Below are positions 19,594 to 32,054 of a stretch of 64,000 bases of DNA, one piece after another. Position numbers and translations under genes: made by a program. The notes beneath the pieces are model-generated. The model was not told where the DNA came from. It was given only the letters and a program-made list of their open reading frames with translations, and made no database searches. Position 1 is the first letter of the stretch. Each line of letters opens with the position of its first letter. Source of the DNA: Escherichia phage KEP3; sequence record PP047753, one strand, 5' to 3'.

Positions 19594-19618
19594 AAGGCTC
19601 CTTTTTACGGGAGCCTTA
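19594..19618. terminator. bidirectional terminator between convergent genes
   Basis: GGCTCC/GGGAGCC hairpin flanked by A-run upstream and T-run downstream. Confidence 0.55.
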
Positions 19619-19622
19619 AACT

Positions 19623-19994
19623 TTATTTTTCAGTACTTTTTGTGTTCTTCTCAGTAATAGCTTGGAGGGCTGATACTGATTGAGCCAGATTATTTACACT
19701 GTCAGAGAACTTATCAAGAGTTTTGGTAAGCTTTGCATTCTCACCCTTAACATTCTCTAACTGAACTTTCTGATTCTCCATCCCTAACTGAATAAGTCTC
19801 ATGTCAGACTGTAAATCACGAATAGCTGAATAGTTACTTTTGGTGTAATTATCTAGCTGCTGTAACTTCGTTGTGACAGACACTTCTTGCTTACCACTTG
19901 AAACTTGCATCGTGGTATACATCCCAATAACACTAAAAATACCAACTACAATTGCACCAATATTATTTTTAAAAGCATCCTCTAGCCACTTCAT
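19623..19994 (-). CDS. membrane-anchored coiled-coil protein
   Basis: N-terminal hydrophobic helix then coiled-coil-like sequence. Confidence 0.4.
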   Translation of the reverse strand: MKWLEDAFKNNIGAIVVGIFSVIGMYTTMQVSSGKQEVSVTTKLQQLDNYTKSNYSAIRDLQSDMRLIQLGMENQKVQLENVKGENAKLTKTLDKFSDSVNNLAQSVSALQAITEKNTKSTEK

Positions 19995-20188
19995 TTATTC
20001 TCCCCCTTAAAAGCTTTTTCTAAGTTATCTACGAACTCATCATCAATAGGTGTGTCTGTTTTACTCGCAAGGTATCTTGCAAGCTTAAAGAACACTTTCT
20101 CAATCATGTATTCACTTAGAAGGGATAAAATGAGTTTCCAGAAGAAGCTACCTAGATTTTTTAGAAGAATTGCTAGGATTGTAGGCAT
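19991..20188 (-). CDS. small hydrophobic protein
   Basis: ORF track. Confidence 0.35.
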   Translation of the reverse strand: MPTILAILLKNLGSFFWKLILSLLSEYMIEKVFFKLARYLASKTDTPIDDEFVDNLEKAFKGENK

Positions 20189-20267: not shown

Positions 20268-22817
20268 TTAAGCAGTTCTTACCCAAGCCATTAACTTATA
20301 GAACTGGTTAGTAACACTAAATGCTAAACCAGAACCAGTACCACCTGTGTTACCACTAACTGTGTGGCTGTGAGCACCAATACCAACAGTGTGGCTGTGG
20401 TTACCTGTTGTATTCGTTACACCAGACCAGTTTCTTGATGCGTTGAAGTTGACAGGGATACCATTAGTAAAGTTGTTACCAGTATACCCTTTAGAACCTG
20501 CCTGACTACCGAGGTAGAATGCACCACTTGCTGTGTAGAAGCTACTAGCGTCACTTCTGAAGTAACCAAATGAACCAGTAATCTCCATAGTACCTCTGTT
20601 GTGGTTGTGGTTACCAGTTGTGCTAGAAGTCTTAGTACCATAGTCAAATGATGAAGTAGTAGCAGAGAAGCTGTGCGTGTGTGAAGGTAAGTTACCAACA
20701 GACAGCGTTACAGAGTCTGAACCACCAGTTGTAGCAACATCTGAACCGTTTGCTGCTGCAATTCTAATAGTTCTACCAACACCATTATTCAGGTACGTCC
20801 AAGTTAACCCAGGAAGTGCTGTGTTTGGGTTGACATTACTGTTAAACCACGTCACAATACCTACTGGATAGATTTTATTCAGGTCTGTAGAGTCACTAAT
20901 TGCTTCTGCAATCTTCTGGTCAGTTTCTGCTTTAGTGTATGCACCAATATCTGAAGGGGTTGGTTTTTGCAAACTTGTGTAGTATTTTGCAATTGTACCC
21001 TTCACAATACCTTGTGGAGCATCATCAAATGTCTGTGGGACTTCAAACAACTGTACACTTGCATTACTAGAAGACTGAACCCTTGTCGTTGTGCTGTTTT
21101 GATACGTACCAGCAAGATAGTAAATATCATAGGTGTCTCCAGAAGTATTCACATAACCAATATCCCTGACAATGGTGTTCTCTGATGTTCTCCAAGCAAC
21201 AACATTTAAGCCCTTTGGATTGTTATTTGAAGTTCGCAGAACAATTTCACATTTACCTGCTTGGTTTGGTGTATTAATATTAAAACCTGACCCACCAAAT
21301 ACCTCAATAACAGCAGTGGATGCTGATTGTGGCATCACAACAGTGGCAATTTTAGCCCACTTATCAGTGTTTCCCACATTGAAGCTAGTGCTTCTGATTC
21401 TTAGGTATCTACTATCACTAGCACTTTGCGTAAAGTATCTAGCATCTAAGTTAGAGAAATCTGAAGGTTGAACTTGTCCAGCAATAGTCAATGTTTTGTT
21501 AATGTATGATGTTGTATTCCCGAGAACCAATTGGGTTCCAGAATAACTGTTATTTAGGGTAACATCATGCGTATCAGCACCACCAACACCAATCCACCAT
21601 CTTGATACATTAGTAGTGTCCACACCACGAATATATAATGGTCTATTCTGAGTAGAGTTTTTAACAATCAGACCTTCATTATCCGTAACAACTGTCTGTA
21701 CACCATTAAAAGTATTCCTTGCATTAGTTCTTGCAATTGTACTTAATGTTGCTGCCGGAATATATCTAGAGTCAATGTTAGCCCAATCTGAAGGTTGAAC
21801 TTGTCCAGTGATTCTGACATTTTTATTTGCTGATACTCCAGCAGCATCTAAGACCAAAGAGGTGTTAGTGGTATAGTTGTAGATAGTTACACCAGCACCT
21901 GAACTACCTTTACCAAGATACCATAAGTTTCCACCTTCATAATCTTTTGCAAGTAGATACAGGGATTCGTTTGCTGATGCACATTGCAGTGTGATAGCAG
22001 CAGCATTTGAGATAACACTCATAGTCCTAAATGTGTTAGCACCTGTAAAGGTGTTATTACCAGCTAACTGTGCAAATCTCTGATTAGCAACTGTCTGAGT
22101 GAAGTATCTAGCATCTAAGTTAGAGAAATCTGAAGGTTGAACTTGACCAGTGATTGCTAAAGACTTATTAACAGAGATATTGCTTGCAATAGTCAAAGCT
22201 GAGTTGTATTTGTTATTGTACAGTTTTACTTCATCAGAGCCATTACTACCAATACCAACCCACCATCTAGCTGAACCATCTAAGTTCACACCCTCAATAT
22301 ATTGCGCATTATTTGCATTCTGGTTTCTAAGACGAAGTAAGTTAGCATCACCTTGAATGTTCTGAGTTCCAGAGAATGTGTTTGTGACAGCAAGCCTTGC
22401 ATATCTTGCATCATTCTCTTCATTAGTTCTCATCCCAAGCTCATTAGGGCTTGGTTTATTCAAAGTGTGATAAACAGTTGCCGACCTTGAAGCATCTGCA
22501 ATAGTGAGTTTAAGACCATTTGCATTAATTTTAAAAGTCTTTAAAACATCCCCAATAGTAACCTCAGAAGAGCCTGTTGGGTCAAATACTGCCTTACCAC
22601 CGTAAAGTAACTTGACAATACCTAAATCCCCAACCATAGTACTCCCAGCAATCTGAACAAACCTTTCTAGTTTGAAGGAAGCTAAGAAGTCTTGATAGGT
22701 CATTCTACGGTCTTCGTCACCCAACATTTCAGGTCTTTTCTTAACTCTGATGTGCAATAGGTCTTCTGAACGAATTGTGTCGATTGAGTTTAACTGACTC
22801 AATTTGTAATCTGCCAT
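20268..22817 (-). CDS. tail fiber protein (long)
   Basis: Three internal repeats GQVQPSD(F/W)(S/A)N(L/I)D(A/S)RY; His-rich HxH C-terminal region. Confidence 0.65.
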   Translation of the reverse strand: MADYKLSQLNSIDTIRSEDLLHIRVKKRPEMLGDEDRRMTYQDFLASFKLERFVQIAGSTMVGDLGIVKLLYGGKAVFDPTGSSEVTIGDVLKTFKINANGLKLTIADASRSATVYHTLNKPSPNELGMRTNEENDARYARLAVTNTFSGTQNIQGDANLLRLRNQNANNAQYIEGVNLDGSARWWVGIGSNGSDEVKLYNNKYNSALTIASNISVNKSLAITGQVQPSDFSNLDARYFTQTVANQRFAQLAGNNTFTGANTFRTMSVISNAAAITLQCASANESLYLLAKDYEGGNLWYLGKGSSGAGVTIYNYTTNTSLVLDAAGVSANKNVRITGQVQPSDWANIDSRYIPAATLSTIARTNARNTFNGVQTVVTDNEGLIVKNSTQNRPLYIRGVDTTNVSRWWIGVGGADTHDVTLNNSYSGTQLVLGNTTSYINKTLTIAGQVQPSDFSNLDARYFTQSASDSRYLRIRSTSFNVGNTDKWAKIATVVMPQSASTAVIEVFGGSGFNINTPNQAGKCEIVLRTSNNNPKGLNVVAWRTSENTIVRDIGYVNTSGDTYDIYYLAGTYQNSTTTRVQSSSNASVQLFEVPQTFDDAPQGIVKGTIAKYYTSLQKPTPSDIGAYTKAETDQKIAEAISDSTDLNKIYPVGIVTWFNSNVNPNTALPGLTWTYLNNGVGRTIRIAAANGSDVATTGGSDSVTLSVGNLPSHTHSFSATTSSFDYGTKTSSTTGNHNHNRGTMEITGSFGYFRSDASSFYTASGAFYLGSQAGSKGYTGNNFTNGIPVNFNASRNWSGVTNTTGNHSHTVGIGAHSHTVSGNTGGTGSGLAFSVTNQFYKLMAWVRTA

Positions 22818-22863
22818 TATGAATTTTCCTCTTAAAAGGGGCTATAAAGCCCCTGTAAAGAAA

Positions 22864-24039
22864 TTAAGCTGTTCTCTGCCACACATACACTACAAAAGAT
22901 GGCTGCTCAACACTGAAAGCTTGACCACCACCAACAGAACCAGATGTCCCTGAGTGTGTATGCTCAGAGCTAGAAACAGTAACAGTGCCTGTATGACTGT
23001 GCGAACCAATATTAACAGTGTGGCTGTGAGCACCAATTGCGACAGTATGGCTATGAGCACCAGATGATGCAGTTGTACCTGAGAAGCTATGGGTGTGAGC
23101 ACCAGCTAAATCAGTATACATAGCATTACCAACACCAGCATCAGCAGATGCAGTAATAGCGTTTGTGCCACCCCTATCATTACCCCTCATAGGGACTCTA
23201 TGGTTGTGGTTACCAGCATTACTTGTTGTGCCACTAAACGTGTGAGTGTGAGAACCAGCACTATTAGTCGTTTTTGTACCGTAATCAAAAGTTGATGTAC
23301 TTTTTGAACCATAATCAAAACTAGAGATAGATACACTTGCAGAGTGTGTATGACCACCACCTGTTAGATAGATAGAGTGAGTATGCGCTGGTAAATTATT
23401 ATTTGTTAATGCTACAGTCTGAGAACCAAACGTTGAACCAACAGGTCTAGAATATGTATCATAACCAACTAGTGCTCTACCTTTAGAAACTAACTCCCAA
23501 GTACCTCCACAAAGCAAGTAAGTGGATGGGTTATCAGAGTTAACAGATAGATGAATAGTACCCACTGGATATGATGCTTGGATAGCTTTGTATAAATTAT
23601 TAACTGCTTTCGCGGTAGCATATTTATCAGCATCTTCATTGTACAGATTGGATGTTGTCCAGTTCTGAACATTACTTAAACCAACCTGTGCTTTCGTTGT
23701 GTTATGTGGGTTACTTTTGTCGTCAATATGTTGCTGAATTAAGTTATTCACTTCCTCTGACGACATAATTTGTAGATTTGCTCTTGCCTCAGCAACATTT
23801 ACAATATCTGACAAGTTATTAGCTGCAACTAATTGAAGAGAGTTAATAACATTATCAAGACCTACTTGCGATTTAGTTACACCATGAGGGTTATTCCTCA
23901 AAGATGCGTGAGGTGCTAACAACTGCTCAAGCGTACATCTTTTATCCTCAACACCTTGCTTAAGATGGAAGATATCACTTAAATCAACTGGTAAGGCCGC
24001 TTGTGGCAAGGCACTAATTTGAATTTCACCTACTGCCAT
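22864..24039 (-). CDS. tail fiber protein (short), paralogous C-terminus
   Basis: Duplicated N-terminal NPH(G/N)(V/T)TK(S/A)QVGL(D/S)NV motif; HTHS/HSHT repeats; C-terminal end similar to 20268-22817. Confidence 0.6.
   Translation of the reverse strand: MAVGEIQISALPQAALPVDLSDIFHLKQGVEDKRCTLEQLLAPHASLRNNPHGVTKSQVGLDNVINSLQLVAANNLSDIVNVAEARANLQIMSSEEVNNLIQQHIDDKSNPHNTTKAQVGLSNVQNWTTSNLYNEDADKYATAKAVNNLYKAIQASYPVGTIHLSVNSDNPSTYLLCGGTWELVSKGRALVGYDTYSRPVGSTFGSQTVALTNNNLPAHTHSIYLTGGGHTHSASVSISSFDYGSKSTSTFDYGTKTTNSAGSHTHTFSGTTSNAGNHNHRVPMRGNDRGGTNAITASADAGVGNAMYTDLAGAHTHSFSGTTASSGAHSHTVAIGAHSHTVNIGSHSHTGTVTVSSSEHTHSGTSGSVGGGQAFSVEQPSFVVYVWQRTA

Positions 24040-26670: not shown

Positions 26671-32054
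<5,384 letters not shown>

Follow-up and report, generated by a model that had tools for sequence, protein, structure and literature searches.

The fibre locus

The stretch analysed here, 64,000 nt of Escherichia phage KEP3 (PP047753), is called the window below. Between positions 20268 and 24039, the list of open reading frames (ORFs) contains two minus-strand ORFs only, of 391 aa (22864-24039) and 849 aa (20268-22817), with a spacer of 46 nt between them. A sequence-only reading had described them as two adjacent tail-fibre genes with HxH-rich C-termini and internal repeats, and had suggested domain shuffling between receptor-binding proteins. After the paper on Bas63, the 391-aa protein is named the short fibre (STF) and the 849-aa protein the long fibre (LTF). 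The DNA was 94-98% identical over 89-100% of the length to vB_EcoM_H12, KEP2, wV8 and several O157 typing phages, with 96-98% for the wV8-like phages, and the 239 matching phage records came nearly all from Felixounavirus of Escherichia or Salmonella and their relatives. By these matches, the window is assigned to a wV8-like (Felix O1-type) Felixounavirus.

STF was 99% identical at the amino acid level to wV8 gene 82 and matched the tail fiber family phrog_2097 with an E-value of 3e-137, and LTF was 94% identical to wV8 gene 83 and matched phrog_4277 (tail fiber) with 1344 bits over residues 1-849. Similarity to the two families extended over the full length, and the N-terminal domains were conserved. 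In the wV8 record (NC_012749), gene 82 is annotated as 'tail fiber protein GP37' and gene 83 as 'tail fiber protein'. The gene order (a wedge protein of 489 aa, a wedge protein of 284 aa, a 100-aa protein, STF, LTF, two small membrane-protein genes, td, frd) was identical in wV8. The fibre genes hold the position of Felixounavirus STF and LTF, after the wedge and fibre-platform genes and with STF first, and this order was repeated in Felix O1, Sf13, Alf5, pEP20 and PC79-13. The two genes are an STF/LTF pair, the counterpart of wV8 genes 82/83, Felix O1 gp76/gp77 and Bas63 gp26/gp27. The parts of the locus are as follows.

22864..24039, minus strand: STF gene, 391 aa; equals wV8 gene 82 and corresponds to Bas63 STF gp26
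23620..24039, minus strand: STF aa 1-140, N-terminal baseplate-binding region with two NPHxxTKxQVGL helix-and-turn motifs (regular expression; role after the Bas63 structure as described in PMC12609058)
23386..23619, minus strand: STF aa 141-218, collar domain (YPVGT...NLPAHTHS); alignable with the collar of T4 gp37 and with the C-terminal domain of T4 gp10; Gp10_C stretch 154-276
23200..23385, minus strand: STF aa 219-280, ascending needle strand with 4 HxH (219, 230, 264, 278) and duplicated SFDYGxK (regular expression and multiple alignment)
23098..23199, minus strand: STF aa 281-314, head segment at the distal tip, placed like the T4 head, after the ascending HxH set and before the descending one; hypervariable among relatives
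22867..23097, minus strand: STF aa 315-391, descending needle strand with 5 HxH (315, 329, 338, 347, 360) and the C-terminal strand AFSVEQPSFVVYVWQRTA (regular expression and alignment)
22818..22863, minus strand: intergenic hairpin GGGGC-UUUAUA-GCCCC followed by UUUU, and ribosome-binding site of the LTF gene (RNAfold, -16.8 kcal/mol; wV8 annotates a rho-independent terminator)
20268..22817, minus strand: LTF gene, 849 aa; equals wV8 gene 83 and corresponds to Bas63 LTF gp27
22404..22817, minus strand: LTF aa 1-138, N-terminal domain for baseplate binding, with 73-97% conservation in three genera of Ounavirinae
21408..22403, minus strand: LTF aa 139-470, three rod repeats of ~110 aa, each ending in ITGQVQPSD(F/W)xN(L/I)DxRY (PF20744)
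21828..22067, minus strand: LTF recombinant patch, pEP20-like, nt ~750-990 of the gene (aa ~251-330), core of repeat 2 (sliding 60-nt identity)
20979..21407, minus strand: LTF aa 471-613, mid-shaft beta-sandwich cassette, 143 aa (AlphaFold2, Foldseek, alignment)
20682..20978, minus strand: LTF aa 614-712, PTPSDIGAYTKAE linker and collar domain, 69-100% conserved; Gp10_C stretch 647-742; aligns to the T4 gp37 collar
20601..20681, minus strand: LTF aa 713-739, ascending needle strand with 2 HxH (713, 737) and SSFDYGTK (regular expression and alignment)
20400..20600, minus strand: LTF aa 740-806, enlarged aromatic-rich head without HxH (alignment)
20271..20399, minus strand: LTF aa 807-849, descending needle strand with 2 HxH (807, 816) and the C-terminal strand AFSVTNQFYKLMAWVRTA, 77-98% conserved

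Sequence homology of both tips to the T4 gp37 tip

In phmmer searches, STF residues 146-362 matched PDB entry 2XGF, the receptor-binding tip of T4 gp37, with an E-value of 2.5e-26, and LTF alone matched the same entry with an E-value of 5.6e-4. When the distal half of LTF was searched as a family profile (56 relatives), the match to 2XGF had an E-value of 3.9e-50 and extended from collar to C-terminus (chain residues 20-239 of 242). The Pfam collar domain Gp10_C was present in both proteins. In a multiple alignment with T4 gp37 785-1026, in which the T4 domain limits were taken from the alignment and from the description given in the Bas63 paper (PMC12609058), the HxH motifs were in register and the heads lay between the ascending and the descending sets, with four motifs up and five down in STF, two and two in LTF, and three and four in T4 (seven in the T4 tip). 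The ascending strand of STF has one HxH and one FDYG unit beyond T4 gp37; this extra HxH accompanies the duplicated FDYGxK unit, and the extra descending one accompanies an SSEHTHSG unit. The alignment to 2XGF runs to the C-terminus. A chain that reverses at the distal head and returns to the collar has been published for the genus in the fibre description of the Bas63 paper (PMC12609058), and it is predicted for the fibres of the window. The matches to 2XGF show that both tips are homologous to the receptor-binding tip of T4 gp37, which carries the likeness to T4-type fibre tips seen in the sequence-only reading beyond resemblance.

An alternative that we consider unlikely holds that only LTF binds the receptor and that STF is a gp10/gp12-like baseplate part whose gp37-like tip mainly docks on the tail sheath or triggers the baseplate instead of selecting the host. 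The best Pfam match of STF was indeed Gp10_C (E 1e-17), PDB entries 2FKK and 5HX2 were matched at E 1e-5, the T4 gp10 C-terminal domain was matched through the collar, and, in the parts of the published accounts that deal with these fibres, the Bas63 STF head sits between sheath domains in the resting virion (PMC12609058) and the role of the short fibre in the genus is called unexplored (the BASEL paper; PMC8594841). However, the match to the gp37 tip was far stronger than that to gp10 and covers the needle and head that gp10 lacks. The STF head is the most variable segment of the protein, with 21-25% identity to the Felix O1, Alf5 and EP1 alleles and 100% to wV8, compared to 81-99% for residues 1-140 across three genera, the best-conserved part among relatives; this is the pattern expected under host-driven selection. 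The STF C-terminus was invariant among relatives. In addition, the STF and LTF tip alleles co-varied across the nine Ounavirinae phages compared (alignments A1 and A2, including the window, wV8, Felix O1, Alf5, EP1, Sf13, pEP20 and PC79-13). STF as a second fibre with a gp37-type receptor-binding tip agrees better with these results.

Similarity between the two fibres

BLASTP aligned LTF 623-849 with STF 136-391 at 30% identity (E 5e-17, composition-adjusted), and the homologous C-terminal stretch comprised ~230-260 residues in each fibre. In Smith-Waterman comparisons of STF with LTF against 500 composition-preserving shuffles (2000 for the last 30 aa), the whole tips scored z = 18.2, the collars 9.7, the needle together with the head 12.8, and the last 30 aa 11.3. 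Alignment of the two C-termini had been set beforehand as the test of a shared module, and it was significant by both measures. The similarity of the last ~20 residues was also confirmed, with 10 of 20 positions identical. Upon counting with a regular expression, we found nine HxH motifs in STF and four in LTF, more than in any of 5000 shuffles (mean 1.4 and maximum 8 for STF; mean 0.13 and maximum 3 for LTF), in agreement with the description of both C-termini as HxH-rich. Among the individual motifs that had been quoted for both fibres, AHSHTV does occur in both, whereas HTHSFSGTT and SHTHT occur in STF only and LTF has HTHSFSATT instead.

The two heads, compared on their own, were unrelated against shuffles (z = -0.3). 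As the collar, needle and C-terminal strand are related but the heads are not, what the two fibres have in common is a structural scaffold, whereas the segments that should contact the receptor are different. We regard this His-rich module as an old paralogy of the scaffold, judged from the alignments; the STF and LTF tips were 27-33% identical in 7 of 8 related phages, and this range held in six relatives other than this phage.

That the likeness of the two C-termini stems from a recent duplication or gene conversion within this phage, which would give both fibres the same specificity, is very improbable. A precedent exists in Felix O1, whose two tips are 55% identical (E 1e-41) with ~90 near-identical residues, and the fibre genes of the window do share short DNA repeats, for example 60 nt at 75% identity (family D2). 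However, the tips here are only 30% identical, as in the six relatives, and the heads are unrelated. The DNA matches between the genes were short (22-60 nt, 64-84% identity) and confined to the HxH and GIGAH motifs, and no longer near-identical stretch was found between the genes. A composition artefact, in which Gly/Ser/Thr/His-rich C-termini align by chance and HxH has no structural meaning, can practically be dismissed in spite of phmmer bias scores of 31-33 bits in the 2XGF matches, since the similarity persists after composition adjustment and against composition-preserving shuffles, the HxH counts exceed all shuffles, the collar, which is not His-rich, and the C-terminal strand match too, and the motifs line up with those of a solved structure.

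At their N-termini (22660-22817 and 23880-24039), STF and LTF also showed a weak non-random similarity over the first ~45 residues (DLLHIRVKK..GDEDRRMTYQDFLA vs DIFHLK..GVEDKRCTLEQLLA; p ~0.004, 2000 shuffles). It agrees with the description of Bas63, in which the baseplate-binding domains of both fibres are structurally alike despite little sequence similarity (PMC12609058).

Internal repeats and the mid-shaft of the long fibre

The repeats that had been reported, three in LTF and two in STF, were all found again. GQVQPSD[FW][SA]N[LI]D[AS]RY occurs at LTF aa 224, 338 and 447, and NPH[GN][VT]TK[SA]QVGL at STF aa 50 and 110, where segments 36-75 and 96-135 were similar with z = 12. In LTF, three full repeats of ~110 aa each close with the 15-aa motif, their best-conserved part; these repeats were 35-46% identical in pairs (z = 23-39) and visible in the DNA as repeat family D1 with a spacing of 327/342 nt. 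These repeats belong to the Pfam family PF20744 (gp37_trimer), which matched in three stretches (E 2.9e-77; 255 bits against a cut-off of 21.7), that is, as repeated units of ~95 residues over the gathering score. The family profile of LTF also matched the T7 gp17 fibre 4A0T (E 1e-6). According to the description of Bas63 (PMC12609058), its LTF has beta-helix rod units arranged as here, and its STF has the same helix-and-turn motifs without beta-helix domains between them. By their position, the GQVQPSD...RY and NPH..TK.QVGL motifs would be helix-and-turn linkers of the Bas63 type. The internal repeats are structural rod repeats and linkers, and in themselves they are no evidence of shuffling.

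An AlphaFold2 (AF2) monomer model of LTF 462-849, computed from the 56-sequence alignment, contained a confident beta-sandwich at aa ~481-611 (pLDDT mostly 74-92) in the mid-shaft. The top Foldseek matches of this domain in the PDB were the Pantoea stewartii tailspike-like protein WceF (6TGF, E 2e-6) and Acinetobacter phage tailspikes, with lectin and galectin folds lower in the list at non-significant E-values; phmmer against the PDB returned chance-level matches only (E >= 0.25). A putative carbohydrate-binding role of the mid-shaft is plausible.

Mosaicism and exchange

We further investigated the segments that the fibre genes share with other phages. The LTF patch at nt ~750-990 was 90-98% identical in DNA to pEP20 and 43-58% to wV8, with flanks that were 90-100% wV8-like, and both of its breakpoints lay inside conserved linker sequences. 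The mid-shaft cassette was 100% identical to wV8 and 28% identical to EP1, and an unrelated shorter domain replaced it in Felix O1, Alf5, Sf13, pEP20 and PC79-13. This shorter domain (A1 columns ~480-640; L002, L003, L006, L007, L008) matched the Mu tail fibre protein S (8JU3, E 2.9e-23) and is annotated in Sf13 as a T7 gp17-like C-terminal domain (PF12604); it is another cassette common to unrelated phages.

The heads were discrete alleles on a constant collar and needle. The LTF head was 12-23% identical to the Felix O1, Alf5 and EP1 alleles and 61% identical to those of pEP20 and Sf13, and it contained 11 aromatic residues (F/W/Y) in 67 aa, compared to 1 in 34 for the STF head. LTF aa 720-821, comprising the head and the flanking needle motifs, was 71% identical to the tips of lambda-Stf-like fibres of E. 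coli prophages, and the mid-shaft (aa 474-626) was 44% identical to the same fibres. In the DNA, 15 of 5426 complete E. coli genomes, among them O104:H4 and Shiga toxin-producing E. coli (STEC) strains, had a match of ~75% over 290 nt that coincided exactly with the head region. The prophage fibres with an LTF-type head carry a T4-gp37-like collar (e.g., WP_182924593 in NZ_AP022298; clusters P0033, P0035 and P0036; proteins P0033-P0051). They have the same order as LTF, that is, mid domain, collar, needle and head, and they differ in a lambdoid Stf N-terminus, the T4-gp37-like collar and a downstream Tfa (Caudo_TAP) gene, which has no detectable counterpart in the window. One such prophage locus (L013; NZ_AP022298, 1736-4405) contains gpJ, lom, stf, a macro-domain gene and tfa, and in another (L011) tfa directly follows stf.

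In Felix O1 (L002; 1544-2710 and 2761-5109), the overall similarity of the two tips is concentrated in the head and distal needle, which are nearly identical over ~90 residues. The 55% identity between its tips, compared with 27-33% in seven other phages, points to a recent exchange between its two fibre genes; the tail-fibre passages of the Felix O1, VpaE1, BASEL and Bas63 papers make no mention of it.

Since the linkers and needle motifs are conserved in DNA, they would serve as crossover points at which rod units, the mid-shaft domain and the head are exchanged with other phages and prophages. In T-even fibres, it is a classical observation that recombination takes place at conserved motifs on either side of the variable parts of the adhesin (Tetart 1996, 1998, as cited in the relevant passage of PMC3157838). 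The breakpoints and shared segments indicate that shuffling is real at this locus, among phages, with prophage fibres and, in Felix O1, between the two fibres, and that none has occurred recently between the two genes of this phage. The earlier suggestion of shuffling between receptor-binding proteins is consequently upheld for exchange of the locus with phages and prophages, but not for exchange between these two genes, whose tips are ~30% identical and whose heads are unrelated.

Two observations were made on the side. The tip alleles form pairs: one pair, with 9 STF and 4 LTF HxH, occurs in the window, wV8, pEP20 and Sf13, Alf5, EP1 and PC79-13 have 7 and 6 HxH, and Felix O1 has 9 and 6. 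These pairs cross the genera Felixounavirus, Mooglevirus and Suspvirus, and nine phages are too few to separate this from shared ancestry. In Citrobacter phage BSwM KMM2 (L004; 2758-4548 and 4564-5133), the LTF is annotated as two coding sequences, split just before the tip; either an error in sequencing or a real truncation of the fibre may lie behind this.

Comparison with known systems

The fibres of wV8 (genes 82/83), vB_EcoM_H12 and the O157 typing phages 1, 8, 11 and 12 have the same locus, order and length and the same intergenic terminator hairpin. Compared to wV8, STF is 99% identical. For LTF, the overall identity is 94%, and it reaches 98-100% over the part from aa ~360 onwards (mid-shaft, collar, needle and head). 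Repeat 2 of LTF differs in its core (aa ~251-330), where the identity is only ~50-60%. Most relatives have a shorter domain in place of the 143-aa mid-shaft beta-sandwich.

Bas63 (JohannRWettstein), which we compared by its published description (PMC12609058), belongs to the same genus, and its wedge proteins match in length (489 aa and ~285 aa). In the cryo-EM account of 2025, the tip of each of its fibres resembles that of T4 gp37 and consists of collar, HxH needle and head, with seven di-histidine motifs in STF and six in LTF, compared to nine and four in the window, and the LTF head of the window (67 aa, aromatic-rich) is larger than that of Bas63. T4 gp37 (2XGF) shares the collar, the FDYGTK motif, the HxH in register, the placement of the head and, as predicted for the fibres of the window, a C-terminal strand that would return towards the collar. 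The jointed fibre of T4, however, is made of four proteins and carries its tip on a distal half-fibre of 1026 aa, whereas the fibres of the window are single proteins directly on the baseplate; the T4 heads are unrelated in sequence to those of the window, and T4 has seven HxH compared to nine and four.

The core of the finding has already been published, because the papers on Felix O1, VpaE1 and Bas63 contain it. The 2010 genome paper on Felix O1 states, where it treats the tail fibres, that both resemble T4 gp37 at the C-terminus (PMC3185647). The corresponding passage on VpaE1 from 2015 reports the same likeness together with conserved N-termini, variable C-termini and a variable LTF middle (PMC4690856), and the Bas63 paper describes the tips and beta-helix repeats as the variable parts across the genus (PMC12609058). 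Only the HxH counts of nine and four, the enlarged wV8-type head common with prophage Stf, the mid-shaft cassette and the pEP20-like patch are mildly new. As near-identical published genomes already label these genes as tail fibres, the result carries little weight as a discovery. Its practical value lies in a residue map that separates the heads (STF 281-314, LTF 740-806), the cassette (LTF 471-613) and the rod units from the constant scaffold. The natural crossovers fall in conserved linkers and needle motifs, and these junctions are useful for engineering the host range of Felix-type phages (STEC, Salmonella).

Proposed architecture

We propose that the two genes encode the STF and LTF of a wV8-like Felixounavirus, with T4-gp37-type tips on a paralogous scaffold and with exchangeable parts, and we give this reading a probability of about 0.88. 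Gene identity, homology to 2XGF, motif counts and register, mosaic breakpoints, shared and unshared segments and head divergence were computed here. The trimeric state, the metal binding, the receptor with the residues that contact it, and the sequence of engagement of the two fibres are predicted.

STF and LTF are presumably homotrimers, in which an N-terminal domain would plug into the baseplate and be followed by a shaft and a C-terminal tip. In Bas63, according to the section on fibre anchoring, the baseplate partner of STF is wedge protein 2 and that of LTF is the small platform protein (PMC12609058). The LTF shaft would consist of three beta-structured rod units joined by helix-and-turn linkers, and the NPH motifs of STF would be the same kind of linker without rod units. 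In each tip, a globular collar would be followed by a needle made of the outgoing and the returning chain, with the head at the turn. At each HxH level of the needle, three chains would contribute six histidines to one metal ion, so that nine sites are predicted for STF and four for LTF (T4, seven); a homotrimer with one octahedral metal (Fe) site per level is predicted by homology. The C-terminal strand (AFSV...W.RTA) would return to the collar. The head at the turn would contact the receptor, which is lipopolysaccharide for this phage group as stated in the passages on receptors in PMC8594841 and PMC4690856. Specificity would then reside in the two unrelated heads and possibly also in the LTF mid-shaft beta-sandwich.

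Several points weigh against this architecture. The AF2 monomer model had low confidence over the needle and head of LTF (pLDDT 38-66), and only the mid-shaft and part of the collar were confident; we attribute this to the use of a monomer model for an intertwined trimer. A Foldseek search of the PDB with this LTF model did not return 2XGF. T4 gp37 requires the chaperones gp38 and gp57A. No homologue of gp38 or Tfa was found by tblastn in the 64-kb window (T4 gp38, E 0.2; prophage Tfa, E 0.056; 28-35 aa), with gp57A outside this search and ~24 kb of the genome, roughly a quarter, beyond the window. A dedicated chaperone next to the fibre gene is an accessory feature and does not define the fold. 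The Bas63 fibre density is described as too weak for side chains (PMC12609058). With only four HxH and a 67-aa head, the distal part of LTF may also depart from the T4 geometry. Given the low AF2 confidence and the Foldseek result, the tip fold stands on the homology to 2XGF and on the published Bas63 map.

A bolder extension is tentative, and we think it rather less probable than not. In it, the wV8-type LTF would be a distinct tip variant and more than one further allele, with a shortened four-site needle and a large aromatic head mobile between virulent Ounavirinae and the Stf-like fibres of a few E. coli prophages, in which a different collar carries the head and a Tfa chaperone without counterpart in the window serves it; two glycan-binding sites would be formed together with the lectin-like mid-shaft, and the STF and LTF heads would be inherited as a matched pair. 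If true, this could explain the STEC/O157 host range of the lineage.

Neighbouring features

The intergenic hairpin at 22818-22863 was missed by a simple consensus terminator scan and was confirmed by RNAfold folding; it could reduce the expression of LTF relative to STF. Genes for Baseplate_J-like and other baseplate proteins lie upstream on the same strand as the fibres. Downstream of LTF, past two small ORFs, td (thymidylate synthase) and frd (dihydrofolate reductase) lie on the opposite strand. The two small ORFs, of 65 and 123 aa (19623-20188, minus strand), have hydrophobic N-termini, and the PHROGs function is unknown for both; the homologue of the 123-aa ORF is annotated as a holin in Shigella phage Sf13. 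The order of fibre, small ORF and holin echoes that of T4 gene 37, gene 38 and t, but the 65-aa protein resembled neither gp38 nor Tfa. Nothing meaningful came out of relaxed Pfam scans of the N-termini of STF and LTF and of these two ORFs. A fibre of the T2/T6 type, capped by a separate gp38 adhesin, was set aside, as the ORFs after LTF have 65 and 123 aa and no PHROG function and the tip is a fused adhesin of the T4 type; the gp38 query was that of T4, which the T4 record states to be unrelated to the T2 adhesin.

A further terminator-like hairpin at 19594-19617 (AAGGCTCC...GGAGCCTT) was scored on both strands, and the equivalent site in wV8 also carries an annotated terminator. It is probably a bidirectional terminator, because it lies between the converging thymidylate synthase gene (plus strand) and the 123-aa holin-like gene (minus strand). 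Finally, the baseplate spike protein (27089-27712, minus strand, 207 aa) contains one HxH, H188/H190, at the positions of the di-histidine motif of the Bas63 puncturing apparatus, which the Bas63 paper, in its description of that apparatus, considers to hold an iron ion at the spike tip.

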